Source: an uncultured Gemmatimonadales bacterium
GTDB lineage: Bacteria > Gemmatimonadota > Gemmatimonadetes > Gemmatimonadales > GWC2-71-9
DNA: 31,592 nucleotides
Direction of reading: 5' to 3'
NCBI GenBank assembly: GCA_963730185.1
Contig: CAVSQW010000016.1
Location: forward strand, 1 to 31,592
In this document: in pieces, positions 2,412-31,568 of the stretch
How the letters are laid out: every line of letters begins with the position of its first letter
Position numbering within the stretch: position 1 is the stretch's first letter
The notes under the pieces: generated by a model
What the model was told of the DNA's origin: nothing
Seen by the model: the letters and a program-made list of their open reading frames with translations, nothing else
Databases searched by the model: none
Translations under genes and position numbers: made by a program

Positions 2412-3575
2412 CTACTGGGGCGAGAAGTCACGGAGCCGGCCGACCGTGGCGGCATCGAGGCGCTGGATGAGGGCGAGCAGCAGCTCGACCGTGCGGTCGT
2501 AGTCGGCGCGATTGATGATGCCGTTGTGGGTATGGGTGTAGCGGGTCGGCACGAGGAGGGTGATGGTCGGAACCCCACCGTTGCTCTTCTGGATCTCGGC
2601 CGCGTCGTCGCCGTATCCCTGAATCAGCTCGCCCTGGAGCGGAATGCCCCGGTCCGCGGCGGTCCGACGGGCCAGGGCGACGAAGCTCCGGTTCGGGAGC
2701 TCGCTGCCGTTGTAGAGGAAGATGCCCGGTCCGCCGCCGAGGACCTCCTGGGCCTGGTCGGGACCGACGCCGGGGATGTCGTTGGTCACGCCCGCTTCGA
2801 TCGCGACGGCCACGTCCGGCTTGACCAGCTCGGCGGCGGTGCGTGCCCCACGGAGCCCGATTTCCTCCTGCACCGTCGCCGCGTAGAAGAGCTGATTGGG
2901 GTGCGGGGTGCCGGCCAGACGGCGCATCACATCCAGGACGATGGCGCAGCCGACCCGATCATCCCAGGCCTTGCCCAGGTAGTTCTGAGTGCCGTTCAGG
3001 ATCGCGAAGGGAGAGTCGGGCACGATCGGGTCGCCGGGACCGACGCCGAGGTCGCGGACTTGAGCGGCAGTGGTCGCGCCGACGTCGAGAAAGAGCTTGT
3101 CCCGCGGATCCAGGAGCGCGCCGCCGGCGCCGTTGCCGACCAGATGCGCGTCCCGCACCGTCGACGTGGCCAATACCGGTCCCTTGGAGCCGAGAATGGT
3201 CCACCGCTGGCCGACCAGCACTTCGTCGAGCCATCCGCCCAGCATCTGCATCGTCAGGAACCCGTCCGGTGTGACCCGGCGCACCAGGGCGCCCAGCTCG
3301 TCCATATGGACGTCGATCATGACTCGCGGACCGTTGCTGCCTTGGACGGCGATGACCGAGCCGAGGCCGTCGGATAGCATCCGGTCGGCCACGGGGGTCA
3401 TGTGCTCGACCATGAGCTTCCGCACCGGCTCTTCGAAACCCGACGGGCCGTGGGCGTTGCTGAGCAGCTCGAGCAGCTGGACGGTCGGATCCTGCGCGGC
3501 GGCCGCATCGGGCGAGAGCAACGAGACCGCGGCCAGCATCCCGAGTGCCGCCAGGGACGAGCGACGGCTGCGCAT
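2412..3575 (-). CDS. M42 family metallo-aminopeptidase with signal peptide (alternative start 3605)
   Basis: GPSGFEEPVR, DVHMDELG, KAWDDRVG, TVQEEIGLRGA, AIEAG and RYTHTH motifs; AAA|Q signal cleavage. The 688-aa ORF in the track is an artefactual fusion with a cusA segment. Confidence 0.9.
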   Translation of the reverse strand: MRSRRSSLAALGMLAAVSLLSPDAAAAQDPTVQLLELLSNAHGPSGFEEPVRKLMVEHMTPVADRMLSDGLGSVIAVQGSNGPRVMIDVHMDELGALVRRVTPDGFLTMQMLGGWLDEVLVGQRWTILGSKGPVLATSTVRDAHLVGNGAGGALLDPRDKLFLDVGATTAAQVRDLGVGPGDPIVPDSPFAILNGTQNYLGKAWDDRVGCAIVLDVMRRLAGTPHPNQLFYAATVQEEIGLRGARTAAELVKPDVAVAIEAGVTNDIPGVGPDQAQEVLGGGPGIFLYNGSELPNRSFVALARRTAADRGIPLQGELIQGYGDDAAEIQKSNGGVPTITLLVPTRYTHTHNGIINRADYDRTVELLLALIQRLDAATVGRLRDFSPQ

Positions 3576-3814
3576 CAGACGAGTCGACCAGCGTTGCTGA
3601 GGCATCGAGCCATCCCCGTTGTGGGTTCGGAGCGGAAGGTGGATCCTGGCACAGTCGGCAGCCGAAGGCACGCTCGACGAAGCTATCCGCCGGTCCCGCA
3701 AAGCGCCACGCAATACCCACCACGACCCCAACCAGGGCCGAAGGGGCACCAGGATCCCGAACGCGCAGGATTCGGACCCGCCACGGCGCGGTGGTCGGCT
3801 CGGTTTCGAGCTGG

Positions 3815-3929
3815 CATGGTCCGGTTCGCGGCCGGCATGACGGGGAACCGTCCTCCGGTCCAGCGGGCGCTGTGGCGCGCCTACCAAACGCTCGACTGGC
3901 CAGCGCTGATTCGAATGCTCGAGGAGTAG
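3815..3929 (+). repeat. 115-bp direct repeat, copy 2 (orphan gene 3' end overlapping the cusA 3' end)
   Basis: Encodes MVRFAAGMTGNRPPVQRALWRAYQTLDWPALIRMLEE*; similarity to copy 1 stops abruptly on both sides. Confidence 0.95.
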
Positions 3930-6900
3930 GGGTCCGGCCGCCGGGCCAGCTGCCCGCGCCGCCAGAGGACGTAGATCGAGGGAATCACCACCAGCGTCAG
4001 GAGCGTGGCCGTGAGCATCCCGCCCACCATTGGCGCCGCGATCCGTTTCATCACGTCGGCCCCGGTCCCATGGCTCCAGAGGATCGGCGCCAGGCCCGGC
4101 CATGATCGCGACCACGGTCATCATCTTGGGCCGGAGCCGCTCCACCGCGCCCTCGCGGACCGCGGCGGCGACGTCACCGGCGTTCCGCATCCGGCCTTCG
4201 AGGCGCCGGCGATGGAAGGCCTCGTCGAGATAGATCAGCATCACCACGCCGGTCTCGGCCGCGACGCCCGCCAGCGCGATGAAGCCGACCCAGACCGCCA
4301 CGCTGGTGTTGTAGCCCGCGAGCCAGAGGAACCACACCCCGCCTACCAGGGCGAAGGGCACCGACAACATCACGATCAGCGACTCGCTCACGCTCCGGAA
4401 GTTGAGGTAGAGCAAGAGGAAGATGATCCCGAGCGTGACCGGGAGGACCAGGTTCAGCTTCTGACGGACCCGCTGCATGAACTCGTATTGCCCGCTCCAG
4501 GCGAGGGTGTAGCCCGGCCGGCAGGGTCAGGCTCCGGGCCACGACGGCCTGGGCGTCCCGCACATAACTGCCGACGTCGCGATCGCCGATGTCGACGAAC
4601 ACCGTCGTGACCGGGAAGGCGTTCTCGGTCTTCACCGCCATCGGTCCCTGGATGACTTTGACCGTGGCCACCTGGCCGAGCGGAATCTGAGCCCCGCCCA
4701 TGGCGGGGATCACCACCTCGCGGAGCTTCTGGACGTCGTCCCGGAGCTCGCGGGGGTAGCGGACGTTGACCGCATAGCGCTCCCGGCCTTCCACCGTGTG
4801 GGCGGCATCCATCCCGCCGACCGTCGCCATGATGGCGCTGTGAATGTCGCCCGCGTTGAGGCCGTACCGCGCGGCCTCCGACCGCTGGATGTCGATGTCC
4901 ACGTAGTATCCCGACACCCCGCGCTCGGCGAACGCGCTTCGGGTGCCGGGCACCTGCTGGACGATTCGCTCGACCCGCTCGCCCAATGCCTGGAGGGTGT
5001 CGAGATCGGGCCCGAAGATCTTGATGCCCACCGGGGTCCGGATGCCGGTCGCCAGCATGTCGATCCGCCCCTTGATGGGCATGGTCCACGCGTTGGTGAC
5101 GCCGGGGAGTTGGGTGGCCCGGTCCAGTTCGCCGATCAGGCGCTCGTAGGTCATCCCCGAGCGCCACTGGTCCTCCGGCTTGAGCGTGATGGTGGTCTCG
5201 TACATGTCGAGCGGGGCCGGGTCGGTCGCGGTTTCGGCCCGTCCGGCCTTGCCCAGGACCGAGCGCGACTTCCGGAAACGTGGCCAGGACGCTGTCCTGG
5301 TACCGCATGATTTCCCGGGCCTGGGCAATCGAGACGCCGGGCACGGTGGTCGGCATGAAGAGGATCGACCCCTCGTGGAGCGGCGGCATGAACTCGCTGC
5401 CCAGCCGGCCCCAGGGCACGGCGGTGACGCCGAGCACCGCCAGCGCCCCGGCGATGACCACCCAGGGCCACCGGAGCGCGAAGCCGAGCACCGGCCGGTA
5501 GACCCACTGGAGGGCGCGGTTGATCGGGTTGCTGCGTTCCGGGCGGATCCGACCCCGGACCAGGTAGCCCATCAGCACCGGCACCAGCGTGATCGAGAGG
5601 AAGGCCGCCCCGGCCATGGCGAACGTCTTGGTGAAGGCCAGCGGCTTGAAGAGCCGACCCTCCTGCTGCTCCAGCGAAAACACCGGCAGGAAGCTGAAGG
5701 TGATGATCAGGAGCGAGTAGAAGAGCGGCGGGCCGACCTGCTTGGCGCTCTCGAGCACGATCTCCCACCGCGAGGTGGTGCTCCCCGCCGCCCGCTCCAC
5801 GTGCTTGTGCAGGTTCTCGATCATCACGATCGCCCCGTCGACCATCGCCCCGATGGCGATCGCGATCCCGCCGAGGCTCATGATGTTGGCGCTCACGCCG
5901 AGCAGCCGCATCACGATGAACGAGAAGAGAATGCCGAGCGGGAGGGTGATGATGGCGACCAGGGCGGAGCGGACGTGGAGCAGGAACAGCACCGCGATCG
6001 CCGCCACCACCAGCGACTCCTCCACCAGCTTGCTCCGGAGGGTGGCGATCGCCCGGTGGATCAGGTCGCTCCGGTCGTAGGCGGTCCGGAGCTTGACCCG
6101 GGGCGGAAGCCCCGCCTGAATCTGGCCGATCCGGGCCTTCACCGCCTCGATGGTCTTGAGGGCGTCGGAGCCGAACCGCATCACCACGATCCCGGCCACC
6201 ACCTCGCCCCGGCCGTTCCAGTCGGCCGCGCCCCGCCGGGGCGCCGGGCCCAGCTGCACGGTGGCCACGTCGGCCACCCGGATCGGCGTGCCGCTCGGCG
6301 TGGCCCCGACGGTGACGTCCTCGATGTCGCTGATGCCCTTCAGGTAGCCGAGCCCGCGGATCATGTATTCGCGCCCCCCCATCTCGAGCACCCGGGCGCC
6401 GATGTCCACGTTGTGGTCGCCGATGGCCCGGGCCACCCGGGTCACCGGGATGTCGAACGCCCGGAGCCGCTCGGGATCGACCTCGACCTGATACTGCTTC
6501 ACGAACCCGCCCAGGGTGGCGACCTCGGAGACGCCCGGGATCGCGGTGAGCTGGTAGCGGAGGTACCAGTCCTGGAGCGAGCGGAGCTGGGCCAGGTCGA
6601 GACTGTCGGACTCCAGGGTGTACTCGAAGATCCAGCCGACCCCGGTGGCGTCGGGACCGAGCACCGGCTCGGCGGACTGGGGCAGCTGCCGGCGGATCCC
6701 GTTCAGGTATTCGAGCACTCGCGAGCGGGCCCAATAGATGTCGGTCCCGTCCTCGAAGATCACGTAGACGAGGCTCAGGCCGAAGAACGAATAGCCGCGG
6801 ACCACCCGGGCGCCCGGGACCTTGAGCATCTCCGACGCGATCGGATAGGTGATCTGGTCCTCGACGATTTGCGGCGCCTGCTCGGCGAAGTCGGTCTGGA

Positions 6901-7045
6901 CGATGACCTGGACGTCGGAGAGGTCGGGGATCGCGTCGAGCGGGGTCGTGGCCATGGCCCAGATGCCGCCCGCCGCCAGCGCGGCGGTGCCGAGCAGGAC
7001 CAGGAACCGGTTCCGGAGCGACCAGGCGATGACCGCGCTAATCAT
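3881..7045 (-). CDS. cusA: CusA/SilA family Cu(I)/Ag(I) RND efflux transporter; frameshifts near 5270, 4515 and 4095
   Basis: MISAVIAWSLRNRF, TPLDAIPDLSDVQVIV, GPDATGVGW, SLGGIAIAIGAMVDGAIVMIEN, ERLRPKMMT, MKRIAAPMVGG. Met triad equivalent to E. coli CusA M573/M623/M672 (LFMPTT, PLDMYET, RIDMLAT). Repaired frame ends at TAG 3881-3883. Confidence 0.92.
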
Positions 7046-8270
7046 GGTCGTGCTCCGGGGTCGTCGGAGCCGGCCGGGCCGGCTGGTCGATCGCGCCGTG
7101 CTGCATCCCGGGCATGGCCCGGCTGGTGGCGGCCAGCCGGGACTCGGCGTCCACCAGGAAGTTGGCCGACCCCACGATCGTCTCGCCCTCGGCGAGGCCG
7201 GAGAGCACCTCGACCCGGTCGCCGGCCCGGTTGCCGAGCACGACGTCGCGCGGGAGGAGGGTGCCGTCGGCGGTCCGGACGAACACCAGGTTCCGTTGGC
7301 CGGTGACCACCACGGCCGCGCGCGGCACCGCGATGACCGACCGGCCCACCACCGCATCGACGTAGAGGGTCGCGAACATTCCCGGCTTGAGCCTGAGGCC
7401 CGGGTTGGGCAAGGTGATCCGTACCCGGTTGGTCCGGCTCTGGACGTCGACGGTCGGGTAGACGAAGCTGACCCGGCCCATGACGTGCTCGCCGGGGTAG
7501 GCGGACACCTCGATGTGGGCCTGGGCGCCCTCGCGAATCAAAGCCAGGTCCTGCTCGAAGACCTCGCCCTCGACCCAGACCTCGGAGAGGTCGGCCAGTC
7601 GGTAGAGGGTCTCGCCGGGCATCACCCGCTGGCCCTCGACCACCTTCTTCTCCAGCACGATGCCATGGACCGGCGAGACCAGGGTCAGCAGCTTGGTCAC
7701 GGTCCCGTCGCGCGCCAGCCGGTCGATCTGCTCGTCGGTGATGTCCCAGTAGCTGAGCCGGCGGCGGGCGGCGGCGAGGGTGGCTTGCGCCGCCCGCCAG
7801 GCCTCGGCCGAGGTGCTGTCGAGGCGGCTCACCAGGCGCTGCGCCGTGAGGAACTCCTCCTGCGCCGCCACCAGCGCGGGGCTGTAGAGCGTGAGGATCG
7901 GCTGTCCCCGGTGCACCGTCTCGCCGGTGGTGCTCACCATCAGCCGCTCGACGAAGCCCTCGATCTTCGGGGTGACCTCGGCCACCCGCGACTCGGGCGC
8001 GATGATCTCGCCCACCGTGCGGATCGTCTTGGTGAGGGTCTCCCGGCCTACGGTGGTGTACGACACGCCGAGGGCCCGCTCCTCCTCGGGCGTCAGGTGG
8101 ACCGCCTGGCGGACGGCCATCCCGGTCGAGTCCATGGTCTGGTTGCCGCCGGCCTGCATCCGGGCATGCTCCTCCGCCGTCATCCCCGCCATCGGCGACT
8201 CGGCCTTGGGCTCGCCTCGACCGCACCCCGCGGCGAGCGCCGCGAGCAGGACCACGAAGATCGCCCTCAT
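7038..8270 (-). CDS. cusB: CusB-like RND periplasmic adaptor (membrane fusion lipoprotein)
   Basis: Lipobox LAAGC; LYSPALVAAQEEFL, LADLSEVWVEGEVFE, LKPGMFA; Met/His-rich termini; overlaps the cusA start. Confidence 0.9.
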   Translation of the reverse strand: MRAIFVVLLAALAAGCGRGEPKAESPMAGMTAEEHARMQAGGNQTMDSTGMAVRQAVHLTPEEERALGVSYTTVGRETLTKTIRTVGEIIAPESRVAEVTPKIEGFVERLMVSTTGETVHRGQPILTLYSPALVAAQEEFLTAQRLVSRLDSTSAEAWRAAQATLAAARRRLSYWDITDEQIDRLARDGTVTKLLTLVSPVHGIVLEKKVVEGQRVMPGETLYRLADLSEVWVEGEVFEQDLALIREGAQAHIEVSAYPGEHVMGRVSFVYPTVDVQSRTNRVRITLPNPGLRLKPGMFATLYVDAVVGRSVIAVPRAAVVVTGQRNLVFVRTADGTLLPRDVVLGNRAGDRVEVLSGLAEGETIVGSANFLVDAESRLAATSRAMPGMQHGAIDQPARPAPTTPEHDHD

Positions 8271-9499
8271 CGGTCGCTCCCGCGCCCGCCGAGCAGGGCG
8301 TCGATCCGGGCTTCGGCCTGGCGATAGGTGGCGGTCAGGCGGACCCGCTCGATCTCGTAGCGGTTCACGGTCAGCTCGCTTTCGACCAGGGTCATGTAGT
8401 CCACCCTGCCGACCCGGTAGGCCGACATCGCCGACTCCACCGCCGCCCGGGCCTGGGGAAGGATCGCGGTGTCGTAGAGCCGAGCCAGGCTCCAGGCCCG
8501 CTCGGCGTCGGCGCGCTGCTCGGTCAGGGTGGCGAAGGTCTCGTTGTCGAGGTCCCGGGCCATCGCCTCTTCGCTGGCCCGGGTGGCAGCCATCTCGCGG
8601 CGGATCGGGAGCTGGCGGCGGCCGGCCCAGATCGGGACGCTCACCCCCACCATCAGGGTGGCCATGTCGTCGTACCGGGGGCGCTGGCCGTAGGCCAGGC
8701 CGAGCATCAGGTCGGGATAGACCTCCCGGCGAGCGGCGTCGTAACCCGCCTCGGCCGCTCGGATCCGCTCGGCCGCCGCCCGGAGCGCCGGTCGGGCCGC
8801 GCGGGCCTGGGCCAGGAGCGAGTCGATCGCCGCGGGCTGGCCCGCCGGCTCGGGCAGCTCCAGGGGGCCGACCGAGTCGGTCGCCGGCCGCCCGAGCCGG
8901 GCGTTGAGCCGGGCGATCGCGGCGATCCGGTTCTGCTCCATGACGGTCAGGTCTTCCGTCATCCGGGCCACGGCCACCTGGGCCTGGAGCACGTCCTGCT
9001 GGAGCCCCTCGCCCACGGCGTAGCGGGTCTGGGAGACCTGGAAGAAGTCGCGGAGGAGGTCCCGGGTGCGGCGCATGATCGCGATCGCCCGGTCCATGTA
9101 GGCGGCCTCGTAGTAGTCGGCGGCGACCTCCGCGGCCAACTGGGCGCGCTGCTCGTCCGCGGAGAGCGAATCGGCGACCGCCAGGCGCGCCGCCTGCGAC
9201 CGGGCGAGCCGGAGCTTGCCCGGCCAGGGCAGGGTCTGGCTGATCTGGATCTGGTTCATGGTCATCGGCTCGGCCGTGCCGAAGCCCGAGACCGGGCGGT
9301 TCATGAGCGAGAGGGTGAGGATCGGGTCCGGCAGCGCGCCGGCCGGGGCGACCCGCTCGGCCGCCGCATCGGCCCGGAGCCGGCTCGCGGCGAGGGCCGG
9401 GTTGGCGAAGGCCGCGAGCGCCTGAGCTTGGGCCAGACGGAACGTATCGGGCGGCGCGGCGCCGGCCAGCGTCGCCAGGAGCAGTGTGATCGCGGTCAT
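8267..9499 (-). CDS. cusC: TolC/CusC family outer membrane factor
   Basis: GALPDP, SQTLPWPGKL, RYAVGEGLQQDVLQAQV, YRVGRVDYMTLV; 4-bp overlap with cusB. Confidence 0.85.
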   Translation of the reverse strand: MTAITLLLATLAGAAPPDTFRLAQAQALAAFANPALAASRLRADAAAERVAPAGALPDPILTLSLMNRPVSGFGTAEPMTMNQIQISQTLPWPGKLRLARSQAARLAVADSLSADEQRAQLAAEVAADYYEAAYMDRAIAIMRRTRDLLRDFFQVSQTRYAVGEGLQQDVLQAQVAVARMTEDLTVMEQNRIAAIARLNARLGRPATDSVGPLELPEPAGQPAAIDSLLAQARAARPALRAAAERIRAAEAGYDAARREVYPDLMLGLAYGQRPRYDDMATLMVGVSVPIWAGRRQLPIRREMAATRASEEAMARDLDNETFATLTEQRADAERAWSLARLYDTAILPQARAAVESAMSAYRVGRVDYMTLVESELTVNRYEIERVRLTATYRQAEARIDALLGGRGSDR

Positions 9500-21004: not shown

Positions 21005-21916
21005 ATGAGGTCCAGTTCCCTCGGCTGGCTCTGCTGCGCCTGCGTCGCCACCCTCGGATGCAGGTCGAGCGCGGGCCCCGACGCCGACCGACCGGCCCTC
21101 GACGAGTGCGGCACGCCGGGTCCCGGATGGCTGTTCTGCGATGGATTCGAATGGGGCGGGACCGCGCCGTTCTGGGACGGGTCCGACACCGGCCCAACCT
21201 TGGTCGGGGATCCCGGCGCGCACGGCCGCGCCGGAAACCACGTCTTACGGTTCCGGGTTTCCCCGGGGAGTGGTGGCGGGGCCGGCGTCTGGAAGCGGAT
21301 CGCCGGGCATCGGAAGCTCTACACCCGGTTCTGGGTCCAGTGGGAGAAGGGGCACGACCTGACCGCGGTGCACCACGGCCCCGGCGGACTGGCCGCCGAC
21401 CCCGGTGGGAATCTCGGGCGCTCCGGCATTCGCCCCGACGGCACCGACCTCATCGCGGCCACGATCGAGGCCGGCACCGCCGGCCCCCACCCGCTCTACT
21501 CGTACACCTACTACCCCGGCATGTACCAGGACTGCGCCGACCCCGCGGGCGCTTGCTGGGGCGACTCCTTCCCGTGCAGCTACGATCCTCCCGGGGTCAC
21601 CCACTACTGCACCCACCCGGCCGACCGCCCCAGCGTGGCGCAGGCCGGAGTCCAAACTGGACGCTGGTACTGCCTGGAGCAAATGGTCGACGCCGGCACG
21701 CCGACCCCGACCGCGGCGGGTGCCGACGGCGCGCTCGACTTCTGGATCGACGGGGCGGAGATCGGCCCTTGGACCGGGCTCTGGATGCGGTCGACCGAAT
21801 CGCTGCAGCTCAACGTCCTCTGGCTCTTTCTGTACCACCAGGACGGGAACCACAGCGCCGAGGGTCTGCTGGTCGACGACGTGGTGGTCGGCACCGAGGC
21901 GATCGCTTGTCCCTAG
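21005..21916 (+). CDS. Secreted/lipoprotein with predicted beta-jelly-roll (polysaccharide-lyase/ConA-like) fold
   Basis: Lipobox-like TLGC; WLFCDGFE, LYTRFWV, GRWYCLEQMV, DGALDFWIDG and DDVVVGT motifs. Confidence 0.7.
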   Translation: MRSSSLGWLCCACVATLGCRSSAGPDADRPALDECGTPGPGWLFCDGFEWGGTAPFWDGSDTGPTLVGDPGAHGRAGNHVLRFRVSPGSGGGAGVWKRIAGHRKLYTRFWVQWEKGHDLTAVHHGPGGLAADPGGNLGRSGIRPDGTDLIAATIEAGTAGPHPLYSYTYYPGMYQDCADPAGACWGDSFPCSYDPPGVTHYCTHPADRPSVAQAGVQTGRWYCLEQMVDAGTPTPTAAGADGALDFWIDGAEIGPWTGLWMRSTESLQLNVLWLFLYHQDGNHSAEGLLVDDVVVGTEAIACP

Positions 21917-22062
21917 GTCCTTGCCGGCGGGTGAAGCGGCCGGGAGCGGCTGCGACCCGAGCGGGAGGTGGTTGGGGCGAATGAGGGAAGCGACGCGGGC
22001 GCCGAGGGCCCGCCTCGCCCGCCAAGGGGGGACGAGAGGGGCCGTCTGGGCCGCGGCTCTCC

Positions 22063-22512
22063 TTACCGGACGGCGGTCTCCCGTTCCGCCCGGGCCACTA
22101 CCTCGAGCAGTGTTTCGAGCGCATAGTCCCCGTCGTGACGCAGGCCATTCACGAAGAAGGTCGGCGTCCCGTTCACCCCGCTCATCACGCCGCCCCGGAA
22201 ATGCCGCCGGACCTTGTCGGTCCAGCGGCCGGAATCGAGGTCGTCCCGAAACCGGTCCAGGTCGAGACCGATCTGCTCCGCGTACTGTTCCAGGTCGGAG
22301 CGCTCCAGGTGGTGCTGGTGCTGGAAGAGCTGGTCGTGCATCTCCCAGAACCGACCCTGAGCGCCGGCGGCTTCGGCCGCCTCCGCGGCGCCCTCCGCGT
22401 AGGGATGGATGTTGCCGAGCGGGAAGTTCCGGAACACCACCCTGAGGGCGGCGCCCGCCCGCCGTTCCAGTTCCTTCACGATCGGGTACGCCCCGCCGCA
22501 ATAGGGGCATTC
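22063..22512 (-). pseudogene. DsbA/thioredoxin-fold oxidoreductase lacking its 5' end
   Basis: [46 protein letters not shown]. The usual G...A.VT.VEYGD segment before CxxC and a start codon are missing. Confidence 0.82.
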
Positions 22513-22539
22513 CGTACCACTTTGCGACCTTGCCAGACT

Positions 22540-22806
22540 GGTTACCTGGCCGGAGTCATGGGGGTCCTGAACGAGATCACCATCAAGCCGGTCGTCGCCG
22601 CGACCAAGGTCAAGGACGCCATCGAGAAGGCGCTCAAGCGTGATGCCGAAATCGATGCCGATGCCGTAACCGTGCGGGCGGACGGAGGGAGAGTAACGCT
22701 CTCCGGCAGCGTTCGCAGCTGGGCAGACCGCGAAGAAGCAGGCCGGGCGGCGTGGAGGGCGCCGGGTGTGACCGGGGTGGACAACGACCTCGCCGTCTCC
22801 TACTGA
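22540..22806 (+). pseudogene. C-terminal fragment of a multi-BON (OsmY-like) protein
   Basis: [16 protein letters not shown] (tail of one BON) followed by a complete [14 protein letters not shown]...[35 protein letters not shown]. Confidence 0.8.
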
Positions 22807-23029
22807 GTGGCACTTCGCGGCCCGCGTCTCCAGGTCCAGAGTGAACCCCTCCTGCGGTTCGCCCTGGGCCTGAGAGACGGCCGAGGCGCCGGACCACATG
22901 GTCGCCGGGGGGCCGCTCGGCGAGCCCAGGTCGAGGCTGGTTCCGCGGCCGTGGCGCTGCGAGGGAACCCGGACCCCTGACGGGCCGCCTCGCCCATCCG
23001 AGCGGCCGTCCTGCGAGACGAACCGGTCG

Positions 23030-28842: not shown

Positions 28843-30900
28843 TTACTCCGCCCGGCGGCTTCGACCGGCCCGCCTGGCGGCCATCCGGCCTTCGCGGGCC
28901 AGCCGCTTGATGTCCATCCCGTGCCGGATCAAGAGCTTGGCCTCCGCCATGAAGATCGCCGCGTCGATCCCGGTCTCGACCGATTTGTAGTCGTCGAACC
29001 ACTGGGCGTGGTCCGGTGACTCCGCCCGCTGCATCACCTTGAGCAAGGCCACCTGGAGGAAGCCGACCTGGGTCCGGGTCAGCGGAAACGCCTCGACCTT
29101 CCGGTCACGATAGACGCCCCGCGTCCTCGCGAGCCGGAGCTCCGAGCGCCTGAGCAGGAGGGTGTCGGCCGTGTCGTCGTCGCCGCCCTCGTCGTCGCAG
29201 GAGAGCGGGTGGGGGTTGACGGCCACCGGGGGCAGGGTGGTCGGGGCGTCGGTCCGCGGGGCCGACAGCGGGATCAGGTGGAGGAAGTCGTTGGCGTCGC
29301 GGTCGCGATGGGTCAGGTGGCCCATCCCGAAGAGGTGCTCGACGGTCGCCAGCATCGAGGTGTGGTCGTAGGGCGTGTGGTCGATGACCCCGCGCTGGGT
29401 GTACGGTGAGATCACCACCGCCGGCACCCGGACGCCGAGCTGGTCGAACTTGAAGCCGTGCTGGACGTAGGAGTCGGTCTGGAGGTCGCCTGGGGGAACG
29501 GCCGGCCCCGGCTCGACGTGGTCGAAAAAGCCGCCGTGCTCGTCGAAGGTGACCAGCAGGAGGCTGTGCTCCCAGTGGGGCGAGTTCCGAATGGCCTCGT
29601 AGACGTCCTTGATGAGCCGCTCACCCCGGGTCACGTCGTCGAGCGGATGCATCGAGTTGCCGCAGGTGAAGTCGCCGGGGCCGGTGACGTCGAACTTGTG
29701 GGAGCCGTATTTTGGCTCGATGAAGACGAACTTCTCGTCGAAGGTCGCCTGGCTCACCATCGTCTTGAAGTCCTCGAAGTCGCTGAACCGGCCCTGGAGG
29801 GCGTTCAGGTTCATGCCCTTCATCGCGAAGCTCACCGGAAACTCGTCGCCCTCGAAGATCCGCCAGGGAATGCAGTTGGCGTCGCAGACGTCGAAGACGT
29901 TGCCGTTCTCGAACCGATAGCCCTCGACCGTGGTGGAGGTGACGATGTCGAGCTTGCCCGGGCTCCCGTCCAGGCCACCCGAGGTTCCGGCCAGGAGGAA
30001 GAACCGGTTGGGCCAGGTCGGCCCAGGGAGGGATGAGAACCACTGATCGCAGACCGCGAACTCGCGCGCCAGCGCGTTCAGCACCGGGAGCTGGCTCGGG
30101 TCGTAGCAGCGCATGATCCGCTCGGGCGTCGCGGAGCCGTTGTCGAGGTAGTTCTGGATGAACCCGGAGTTGTCGACGGTCGGGTAGCCGCCCAGCACGG
30201 GGTCGTAGACGGCACCGCCGCCGCAGAGCGAGACCAGGGTGTTCTCGAATTCGTGGCCGGGGTCTTCGTCGATGTCCTTGAGCTGGAAGTCGGCCGGCGC
30301 GCTGACCGGTACGGGCAGGCCGGTGACCGGGTTGACGTTGCTGGTGGTGGCGGGATCGAAGCCGGCGTTGAAGGTGGTCGGATCGCCGAAGGGGTCGACC
30401 CCGGTGATTCCGCTGAAGCCGAGCATGTGGTCGAAGGACCGGTTCTCGAGCATCAGCACGAAGACGTGCTGGATCTTCGGCGGGGCCCGCCGGCCTCGGC
30501 CGAGGAGCGCCGCCAACAGCTTGGCCAGGCTCAGCAGCAGGCACCGAAGGGTGTCCCAGGCGACGCAGACGGCCTGGAGGACCCAGGAGAACACGACGCA
30601 GAGCGCCTTGACCACCCAGGCGAAGGCCTTGCATACCCACTTGGCCACCCAGTACCAGGCCTTGCAGACCCACTTGGCGACCCAGTAATAGGCCCGGCAG
30701 AAGAACCCGGCGATGCAGTTCCAGGGCGTGTACCAGTGGCACTTCTCCCAGGAGGTGCACTGGCTCGACCCTTCGTCGGCCCAGGCCGAGCATTCGCTGG
30801 AGCCCTCGTCCGCCCAGGAAGTGCACTCGTAGTCGAGCTGGTTGGTCCAGTTCTTACAGGTGATGACCAGCGTGTCGACCCACTTGGTGCAGGTGGACAT
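28843..30900 (-). CDS. Phosphoesterase / non-specific phospholipase C family protein with N-terminal Cys/Trp-rich repeat domain
   Basis: IQHVFVLMLENRSFDHMLG, CDQWFSSLPGPTWPNR, TFDEHGGFFDHV, LGVRVPAVVISPY, YDHTS; GGGGA RBS. Confidence 0.92.
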   Translation of the reverse strand: MSTCTKWVDTLVITCKNWTNQLDYECTSWADEGSSECSAWADEGSSQCTSWEKCHWYTPWNCIAGFFCRAYYWVAKWVCKAWYWVAKWVCKAFAWVVKALCVVFSWVLQAVCVAWDTLRCLLLSLAKLLAALLGRGRRAPPKIQHVFVLMLENRSFDHMLGFSGITGVDPFGDPTTFNAGFDPATTSNVNPVTGLPVPVSAPADFQLKDIDEDPGHEFENTLVSLCGGGAVYDPVLGGYPTVDNSGFIQNYLDNGSATPERIMRCYDPSQLPVLNALAREFAVCDQWFSSLPGPTWPNRFFLLAGTSGGLDGSPGKLDIVTSTTVEGYRFENGNVFDVCDANCIPWRIFEGDEFPVSFAMKGMNLNALQGRFSDFEDFKTMVSQATFDEKFVFIEPKYGSHKFDVTGPGDFTCGNSMHPLDDVTRGERLIKDVYEAIRNSPHWEHSLLLVTFDEHGGFFDHVEPGPAVPPGDLQTDSYVQHGFKFDQLGVRVPAVVISPYTQRGVIDHTPYDHTSMLATVEHLFGMGHLTHRDRDANDFLHLIPLSAPRTDAPTTLPPVAVNPHPLSCDDEGGDDDTADTLLLRRSELRLARTRGVYRDRKVEAFPLTRTQVGFLQVALLKVMQRAESPDHAQWFDDYKSVETGIDAAIFMAEAKLLIRHGMDIKRLAREGRMAARRAGRSRRAE

Positions 30901-30910
30901 GGCATTCCCC

Positions 30911-31243
30911 CTAGGGTTCGTACTGGGCTCGGAGGTGGCGATAGAGGAGGGCGAGGCGGAGCCGGGCGACTCCGACGCCGATGAGCTTGCCGGTGAGGCC
31001 GGCCGCGAAGACGAGGGCGGCCCCGAGGAGGAGGCTCCGAGTCAGGCCGCCCTGGAGGACGACCCCGAAGTGGAGGCGGTCGACGACCAGGGCGAGGAGC
31101 GCGATGAGGGCGAAGGCGCCGCCCAGGCTGCAGCCGCACTCGCCGTGGAGCGCCTTGGCGCGTTGGACGTAGGGGAGGAAGCTCTCCCGCTCGCCGGGCC
31201 GGGAGCGCAGCAGCTGGTCGAGGACCGACTCGGTTTGGGACAC
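30911..31243 (-). CDS. Small two-TM membrane protein with CGC motif (GTG start 31243; alternative TTG 31255)
   Basis: ECGCSLGGAFALIALL...LVFAAGLTGKLIGVGVARLRL; ends 10 nt before the phosphoesterase start. Confidence 0.7.
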   Translation of the reverse strand: MSQTESVLDQLLRSRPGERESFLPYVQRAKALHGECGCSLGGAFALIALLALVVDRLHFGVVLQGGLTRSLLLGAALVFAAGLTGKLIGVGVARLRLALLYRHLRAQYEP

Positions 31244-31568
31244 ACCAGCCCCCAAGTACGGGGAGTCGAGGGTGATCAGCTGGACCGCTTCAAGTTATGG
31301 CGAATCCCGGTTCGCGTCGACGGGTGGCGCGCTTTGGGTCACCGAGGGGGCATGCTGTGCCACATAATTCCTTATCGCCGCGGGGGTGCTGCATAAGGAG
31401 GTGCTCGCCGTACTTATGCTGCGGGCCCCGCTCGGATGGGTGGCCAGCGCCGCCTCCGGCGGCCGGCCAGCGAAGGGCCGGAAGTGTCGGTTCGCAAACA
31501 GGTTGCGGAGGGTCTGGCCGGCGGTAACCCGCGGCCCGACGAATTTGTTATCTTGCGAGCTGGAGTCC

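Follow-up and report, generated by a model that had tools for sequence, protein, structure and literature searches.

A mirror-symmetric cysteine ladder domain and a small CGC protein form an undescribed bacterial two-gene module of putative function

The window analyzed here, meaning the whole stretch of 31,592 nucleotides at the start of contig CAVSQW010000016.1 (assembly GCA_963730185.1) from an uncultured Gemmatimonadales bacterium, encodes a phospholipase C (PLC)-type protein that begins with a ladder of regularly spaced cysteines and, directly upstream, a small protein with a CGC motif and two predicted transmembrane (TM) segments. Judged by sequence, these genes are an undescribed two-gene module, well supported in its architecture and putative in its function. 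The ladder is a repeat domain with two arms of coupled length and register, and the CGC gene is its near-obligate partner. No description of the domain or of the partner was found in searches of the open-access literature.

Architecture of the ladder domain

The ladder-PLC open reading frame (ORF) and its parts, helices as predicted by AlphaFold2 (AF2), are as follows.

28843..30900, minus strand: ladder-PLC ORF, 685 amino acids (aa), from the ORF list (read 30900..28843)
30763..30894, minus strand: outbound helix, residues 3-46, built of four polar, acidic C-x-x-W units of 11 residues (AF2, hydrophobic moment peak at 100 degrees, position table)
30727..30762, minus strand: turn, residues 47-58, with C48 and C54 (AF2, homologue comparison)
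30565..30726, minus strand: ladder part of the return helix, residues 59-112, C-K-A-W-Y-W-V-A-K-W-V units (AF2, hydrophobic moment, position table)
30475..30564, minus strand: amphipathic continuation, residues 113-134, with C120, then a basic linker, residues 135-142 (RGRRAPPK) (AF2, position table)
29323..30474, minus strand: phosphoesterase/PLC domain PF04185, residues 143-526, with additional conserved Cys 343 and 413 (Pfam, comparison with NPC4)
28843..29322, minus strand: C-terminal region, residues 527-685; C568 and a segment at about 610-655 are conserved (no family match)

A first-pass annotation, made from the letters of the window alone, had placed twelve cysteines at residues 4, 15, 26, 37, 48, 54, 62, 68, 79, 90, 101, and 112, in a palindromic spacing of 11-11-11-11-6-8-6-11-11-11-11. 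Both the positions and the spacing were verified, all six nested pairs summing to 116. When 12 Cys were scattered at random over 115 residues, equal nested sums arose in one of 1,000,000 trials; this null takes no account of tandem repeats, so that the homologue tests below bear the weight of the argument. The contrast in arm character drawn by that annotation also held, with a net charge of -6 for the polar, acidic outbound arm of C-x-x-W units and of +6 for the aromatic, basic return arm, which has 15 aromatic residues. C62 and C68 belong to the start of the return helix, and elsewhere in the family the turn reads CC-x4-C-x3-C or is shorter. The lack of a signal peptide ahead of the ladder was likewise borne out: Met1 stands only three residues before Cys4, which leaves no room for one.

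Each arm had also been read as containing a recent 33-bp duplication. The 33-bp arrays are present, but neighboring units differ at 6 to 9 of 33 nucleotides, two of the three central pairs include synonymous changes, and the closest relatives on the cargo tree likewise have 4/4 units. The units are therefore old and conserved here, and a recent origin in this lineage was not sustained. Three features had been overlooked: the arms are predicted helices, the CGC partner gene lies directly upstream, and the annotated domain holds a thirteenth cysteine, C120 (30543-30541), kept in 148/148 PLC fusions.

The ladder matched no named domain, as had been supposed. None of 50 members matched Pfam, the domain of the window gave no match to NCBIfam, and nothing among the sequences of solved structures in the PDB fell below E 0.2. 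The ESM Atlas returned no usable match, and none was found in viral contigs (by loose alignment), plasmids, or phages. PADLOC matched neither the ladder-PLC nor its partner; its only match was the patatin cargo of locus L045.

The two arms change length together

With residues 1-135 as query, 389 homologues were found among 889 candidates, of which the 120 listed were all PF04185 fusions. Pattern scans yielded 77 loci among 185,579 species genomes; from metagenomes the best 80 of 220 loci were used, near-duplicates included. A profile search reached further, to 298 clusters at 50% identity (163 with E <= 1e-10), from which 136 newly listed representatives made up a distant set.

Arm lengths were compared in complete PLC fusions, kept from 314 parsed sequences as 188 rows and reduced to 148 at 97% identity. 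Five sequences lacking their 5' end, 13 whose outer arm was irregular, and rows in which the cargo was short or of another kind were left out, and eight arm counts were corrected by hand where the parser had overrun the start codon or entered the cargo. The arms were equal in 139 of the 148 fusions (99 with 4/4 units, 32 with 5/5, seven with 6/6, and one with 7/7) and in 19 of 21 Kelch fusions. On a FastTree phylogeny of the cargo alone (148 rows), the left count changed 26 times, the right count 29 times, and their difference only 9 times. Across 13 independent pairs, the arms changed in the same direction in 11, in opposite directions in none, and not at all in two (median p ~0.001). The first-pass idea that the arms expanded in register thus agrees with unit counts that co-vary between arms across homologues.

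The distant set behaved in the same way. Equal arms were observed in 92 of 133 parsed representatives (of 136), against a shuffled mean of 27.8 and a maximum of 43, and the automatic parser used here miscounted some turns, so that asymmetry is probably overstated. Lengths ranged from 2/2 to 11/11 units. Representative P0208 carries the 11/11 ladder on a PLC, with 26 ladder Cys and a hairpin of ~180 Å by helical rise. Where a rung was lost, both of its Cys were lost, leaving gaps of 22/22 in L045/P0148 and in P0159 and of 22/26 in the clade of L069.

Unequal arms, named by the first-pass annotation as an observation that would count against it, do occur and tell against a strict rule. The arms are off by one in 9 of the 148 PLC fusions and unequal in 2 of the 21 Kelch fusions, equality dominating otherwise. 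These cases may be real or may come from repeats collapsed during assembly, and P0103 is probably mis-started, with a true count of 5/4. Because unequal arms exist, arm symmetry is a strong tendency and no absolute rule.

A predicted antiparallel hairpin with one hydrophobic face

The ladder is very probably an antiparallel two-helix hairpin. The AF2 model, built from 50 sequences, has helices at residues 3-46 and 59-134 (mean pLDDT 76.9, pTM 0.50). As 11 residues make three helical turns, all ladder Cys would fall on one helix face. The position table placed C (a), W/F (d), A/Y (e), and G/A (h) in the core of both helices; on the outer side, the outbound helix is acidic and the return helix bears a W/V/A/W/V face with Lys along its flanks. 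The hydrophobic moment peaked at 100 degrees in both arms. A beta-hairpin was rejected, given moments of <=0.15 and <=0.20 at 160-180 degrees against 0.30/0.38 at 100 degrees, together with the AF2 helices.

Covariation agreed with the AF2 model on the long hairpin with symmetric Cys opposed that the first-pass annotation had proposed. Mutual information was computed over 192 unique sequences (effective number 135), with shared ancestry corrected only in part. Cys aside, the top eight cross-arm pairs all lay at i+j = 114-119, and 12 of the top 20 fell within 5 of 116, compared with 4.4 expected; examples are D23-K91, D23-A94, L11-L108, D9-Q109, and T27-K87. Foldseek gave no match to the ladder model at E <= 0.001, and the matches from VIA-align were all generic antiparallel coiled coils (best Z 10.3, rmsd 1.9, 101 aligned), a result that weighs neither for nor against any family.

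The ladder of Kelch proteins is inserted into the propeller right past the first strand, between 'MPGTW' and 'LLTDG'. In P0318, where the ladder is C-terminal instead, the propeller is uninterrupted and these motifs are ~14 residues apart. This insertion site suggests that the ends of the ladder lie close together and on one side of any membrane.

Several properties of the return arm point to a membrane surface. Trp occupies position f in 98% of return units, and the interfacial sum for residues 59-112 is -15.4. The return arm was more hydrophobic than the outbound arm in 132 of 133 distant representatives, a count to be read with the parser's selection of arms by that very contrast in mind.

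The strongly amphipathic design, together with a hydrophobic 19-mer at 96-114 (Kyte-Doolittle mean 2.16), could instead serve a pore. The hairpin would span the membrane and oligomerize into a two-layer pore, acidic inside and aromatic toward lipid, for delivery of the enzyme into a target cell, with the small protein as immunity factor or chaperone. Tc-like toxin genes adjoin 5 of the 77 genome loci, which would suit such delivery; these five represent about three lineages. With 2 to 11 units per arm, hairpin length runs from about 33 to 180 Å by helical rise and matches no bilayer thickness, so that a bilayer-spanning pore fits poorly; moreover, the hairpin sits inside the propeller in Kelch proteins, and fold searches gave only generic coiled coils. 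We regard a pore as very unlikely. Of the membrane-inserting module that had been suggested for the ladder, the bilayer-spanning form is thus disfavored.

A near-obligate partner gene

The partner gene and the sequence joining it to the ladder gene are as follows.

30911..31255, minus strand: partner gene, 114 aa, TTG start (start uncertain; ORF, profile, no family match) (read 31255..30911)
30906..30911, minus strand: GGGGGA, a ribosome-binding-like site overlapping the partner stop codon (sequence)

The partner has a basic N-terminal stretch, an ECGC sequence (CGC at 31138-31130), two predicted TM segments, a GK..G...AR.RL motif, and a basic C-tail. Ten nucleotides separate its stop from the ladder ATG, an arrangement consistent with translational coupling of the two genes.

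With a profile of the partner, 153 of 157 loci showed a homologue next to the ladder. The CGC was present in 148 of these 153 partners; of the rest, three are truncated at contig ends, one has a frameshift, and one reads RGC. The partner is usually upstream of the ladder, with downstream copies in L054 and L071; in L019 it is encoded on the other strand. No other neighbor of ladder genes is conserved, the 79 flanking ORFs being a miscellany. Since it was found beside PLC, Kelch, and zincin cargos alike, the partner goes with the ladder and not with the enzyme.

Reverse searches gave a similar picture. In 401 genomes of the order of genome G404, four new partner genes were found, all adjoining a mirror-Cys hairpin fused to a zincin; two of these hairpins are of the 11-residue type and two are spaced 26-26-turn-26-27. 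Among 401 genomes of the window's own phylum, the four non-self matches comprised a ladder-PLC locus, a 26-type hairpin locus, a CGC-less homologue (L188:6919-7446, genome G356) with no ladder within 14 kb, and a TPR-like protein in G313 (E 6.8e-4) that was considered a chance match. The class of G403 yielded no partner in 294 genomes, a set without a positive control.

Hairpins of the 26-residue period (26-26-turn-26-27) were observed directly upstream of a CGC partner at L185:2198-3988, L186:569-2305, and L187:2615-4408, fused to long amphipathic helices and a zincin. Homology between the 26-residue and 11-residue hairpins was not detected (hhalign probability 3.5, from three sequences only). 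The Bacteroidota partners at L183:1321-1818 and L184:985-1419 carry an extra terminal TCG motif after the basic tail.

The window's partner protein matched neither Pfam nor NCBIfam, and the sequences of solved structures gave nothing below E 2.6. The ESM Atlas returned 30 unnamed clusters for it, with recognition below the reliable mark. Two of 45 members weakly matched holin PF07332 (best E 1.7e-4); the window protein did not. A complex prediction for ladder and partner, with a score of 0.00 and an uncertain partner fold, weighs neither for nor against an interaction.

Cargos and distribution

The suggestion that the ladder is fused to different enzymes was confirmed, as the profile search returned PLC, patatin, GDPD, Kelch, protease, and glycosidase proteins. 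Pfam, applied to 87 of the 136 distant representatives, named PLC, Kelch/galactose-oxidase-like, subtilase (S8), M12, M64, GH1, GH16, GDPD, FAD oxidase, and DUF4474 cargos, and numerous cargos had no Pfam family. Locus L045 carries a patatin. Three of the cargo types are lipid-headgroup enzymes (PLC, patatin, and GDPD), in keeping with a membrane face on the ladder. Among the 136 representatives, 87 have the ladder at the N-terminus, 42 at the C-terminus, and 7 internally. A crude hydropathy test picked out a candidate N-terminal hydrophobic stretch in only 6 of the 136.

A large group (P0209, P0212, P0217, P0246, P0284, and similar proteins) bears a C-terminal ladder behind an N-terminal 'YPTIDWDRVTFY..HEGFH' domain, which we take to resemble a zincin from its motif. 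This domain in P0209 and P0217 had no Pfam match at E 0.01.

Genome loci are scattered over Gemmatimonadota, Bacteroidota, Actinomycetota, several proteobacterial classes, Chloroflexota, Acidobacteriota, and Verrucomicrobiota. G191, from the same family as the window's host, encodes a ladder protein shared with L005, and six other genomes of the host's genus contained no partner gene. This scatter across phyla and absence from congeneric genomes suggest that the cassette is patchy and probably moves sideways.

The phospholipase C-type cargo

PF04185, the phospholipase C/acid phosphatase family, was the sole Pfam match in the 685-aa ORF (236.7 bits against a cut-off of 23, model positions 1-355/356). 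The best solved relative of the cargo was Arabidopsis NPC4 (PDB 8HAV, E 9.7e-47). The eight catalytic residues named for NPC4 in PMC9837106 (E23, N24, D76, H79, T158, H264, D299, and E300) correspond to E152, N153, D213, H216, T295, H418, D453, and E454 of the window protein. All eight were kept in 128 of 148 homologues, and 20 have Gly at D213. The window protein stayed well under the thresholds for the phosphocholine-specific PLC equivalog TIGR03396 (120.4 bits against 580.25) and for TIGR03397 (94 against 363). According to the same account, NPC4 requires a separate membrane tether, S-acylation; it has no ladder, whereas the window protein carries one.

C120, C343, C413, and C568 were kept in 145-148 of 148 ladder PLCs. 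In the PLC clade of L069, L072, L074, L075, L076, and L078, one rung has been lost, C343, C226, and the C120-spaced Cys are missing, and Cys have been gained at 219, 234, and 503, including a new Cys pair. The loss of C343 alongside the C120-spaced Cys is one event only.

A proposed mechanism and its rivals

We propose that the signal-less cargo would be synthesized in the cytoplasm and that the return helix would come to rest in the membrane interface, while the outbound helix, being acidic, would lie above it and face water. The CGC membrane protein, as dedicated receptor and thiol-disulfide relay for the ladder, would then trade disulfides with the rungs and lock the hairpin. The enzyme would be kept at its lipid or other surface substrate, much as acid sphingomyelinase is by its saposin domain. 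That the ladder Cys pairs are disulfides appears likely, and docking on the membrane surface somewhat probable; for the whole chain, including docking, disulfides, and relay, we see the balance as even. Disulfides are favored by the pairwise gain and loss of Cys, by the conservation of C120, C343, C413, and C568, by the joint absence of C343 and the C120-spaced Cys in one clade, and by redox precedent for CGC, which is described as the active site of MauE, a disulfide-forming membrane protein (bioRxiv 10.64898/2026.03.05.709764), and as a redox motif in YphP and model peptides (cited in PMC3173608).

A number of observations weigh against this scheme. With no signal peptide, the ladder would begin in a reducing compartment. 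Mean K+R counts in the partner were 3.4 before TM1, 0.9 in the loop, and 4.4 after TM2, a topology resting on hydropathy and charge counts that predicts a cytoplasmic CGC. MauE is likewise a small membrane protein with an essential CGC and is DsbB-like (PF07291), but it is described with four TM helices, the CGC-FG loop being periplasmic and joining TM3 to TM4 (bioRxiv 10.64898/2026.03.05.709764), whereas the partner has two TMs with the CGC before TM1. The partner was rejected as a MauE homologue (hhalign probability 4.3 over 8 columns, the motif only; PF07291 in 0/45 members). Four ladder loci (L045, L062, L077, and L079) lack a partner, and three of those genomes, which are possibly incomplete, contained no convincing copy elsewhere. 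The AF2 model came without Cys-Cys distances. Much of the cargo list lies outside lipid enzymes (Kelch/galactose-oxidase-like, S8, M12, M64, GH1, GH16, and FAD oxidase). Finally, five ladder-less PLC relatives that were inspected are likewise without a signal peptide, so that in PLC cargo the ladder is no simple replacement for one.

The tension between a signal-less ladder and a cytoplasmic CGC admits oxidation at the cytoplasmic face, export through the partner, or metal sites. Under export, the hairpin and a holin-like CGC translocator would carry folded, signal-less enzymes across the inner membrane, the rungs oxidizing during or after passage. Several of the cargo families are usually secreted. 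The scarcity of candidate N-terminal hydrophobic stretches, the freedom of the ladder to stand at either end or internally, and the small two-TM, N-in/C-in partner with its occasional holin match would all suit an export tag. An invariant CGC is not a feature known from holins, the holin match is weak and missing for the window protein, no endolysin or other third conserved gene lies near the cassette, and the ladder-less PLC relatives are signal-less too. Non-lytic holin export of signal-less proteins is documented for TcdE, TpeE, and ChiW and in type 10 secretion, where a small membrane protein gene also stands beside signal-less cargo (PMC9527704); the ladder cassette differs in having no conserved endolysin, and a Cys-ladder tag is missing from the holin systems described there. 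On this evidence an export tag is unlikely.

Metal binding would dispense with oxidation. The protein would stay reduced in the cytoplasm, facing Cys pairs of two hairpins would bind Zn or Cu at each rung, the Trp faces would pack into a soluble four-helix stalk that oligomerizes the enzyme, and the CGC protein would supply or sense the metal. The absent signal peptide and cytoplasmic CGC accord with this, paired Cys gain and loss is expected just as much for metal sites, and the Trp/Val stripe is compatible with a protein interface. The position table, however, has no conserved His, Asp, or Met as third ligand near the Cys, no metal-handling theme was found among the 79 flanking ORFs scanned, and paired Cys changes occur within the cargo domain as well. 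Lys beside a Trp face is, besides, typical of interfacial helices. We therefore judge a metal stalk improbable.

Among known systems, Mia40 (CHCHD4) is the dedicated oxidase of CHCH proteins and has a Cys-x-Cys (CPC) motif. CHCH/twin CX9C proteins, described with Mia40 in the mitochondrial intermembrane space (PMC12114033, PMC4571295), share with the predicted ladder a helix-turn-helix with nested Cys pairs. They have two rungs at CX9C, unlike the 4-13 rungs of the ladder at CX10C, with four repeats per arm here and no Pfam family in 50 members. The ladder is also bacterial and enzyme-fused with arms of opposite character, and its partner has two TMs and no evident CHCH fold. The saposin domain of acid sphingomyelinase, with its nested disulfides and lipid presentation (PMC5062611), offers a second likeness, as it sets N-terminal amphipathic antiparallel helices on a lipid phosphodiesterase. 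A saposin has four short helices and three disulfides (six Cys) at fixed spacing, whereas the ladder is a repeat that varies in length on two long predicted helices, with twelve Cys at 11-residue spacing in the window protein; the catalytic domains belong to different families, and no solved saposin was among the fold-search matches listed.

By analogy with Mia40, the two genes might even form a self-contained pathway that has spread laterally over many bacterial phyla, a fold-and-trap counterpart in which the ladder is the portable tag and the CGC protein oxidizes it from the cytoplasmic side and sees to delivery or export of the enzyme independently of Sec and Tat. This extension is speculative, and we rate it as rather doubtful.

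Genomic surroundings

Other features of the window, and toxin-like genes at other ladder loci, are listed below.

2412..9499, minus strand: RND efflux operon (OEP, HlyD/CusB, AcrB-type) (Pfam)
21245..22899, minus strand: region that includes a gene for a DsbA-like thioredoxin (22063-22899), ~6 kb away from the ladder gene (Pfam)
L030 and L031 (upstream); L044:4152-8508, L076:8103-11294, and L078 (downstream): Tc-toxin-like genes (TcA_TcB_BD, ABC_toxin_N, neuraminidase-like, SpvB) beside the cassette at the five loci mentioned above, those at L030 and L078 by clustering only

Near 4454-4478 the AcrB-type gene is broken across two frames, and its end merges into an M42 peptidase ORF, possibly through sequencing errors. 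The DsbA-like gene is probably unrelated to the ladder, since no such gene is conserved beside other ladder loci. A near-identical second copy (G000:C14:1-2320, L002) was not counted as a paralogue; it is frameshift-ridden and sits at a contig start overlapping the last 3 kb of the window, most likely an assembly artifact of low-quality long-read overlap.

Significance

A repeat domain with length-coupled halves provides rare direct evidence of a structural register encoded in the gene, and the nested register supplies a testable disulfide map in advance. The partner gene makes the cassette a minimal two-component system. Gaps in bacterial disulfide formation are acknowledged (bioRxiv 10.64898/2026.03.05.709764); if the CGC protein oxidizes its substrate or moves it, a further route to disulfide formation or to signal-independent targeting would be gained. 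The length-tunable amphipathic hairpin may also be of use as a membrane-anchoring part. If true, the proposed mechanism would explain hundreds of signal-less hydrolases of soil and sediment bacteria.

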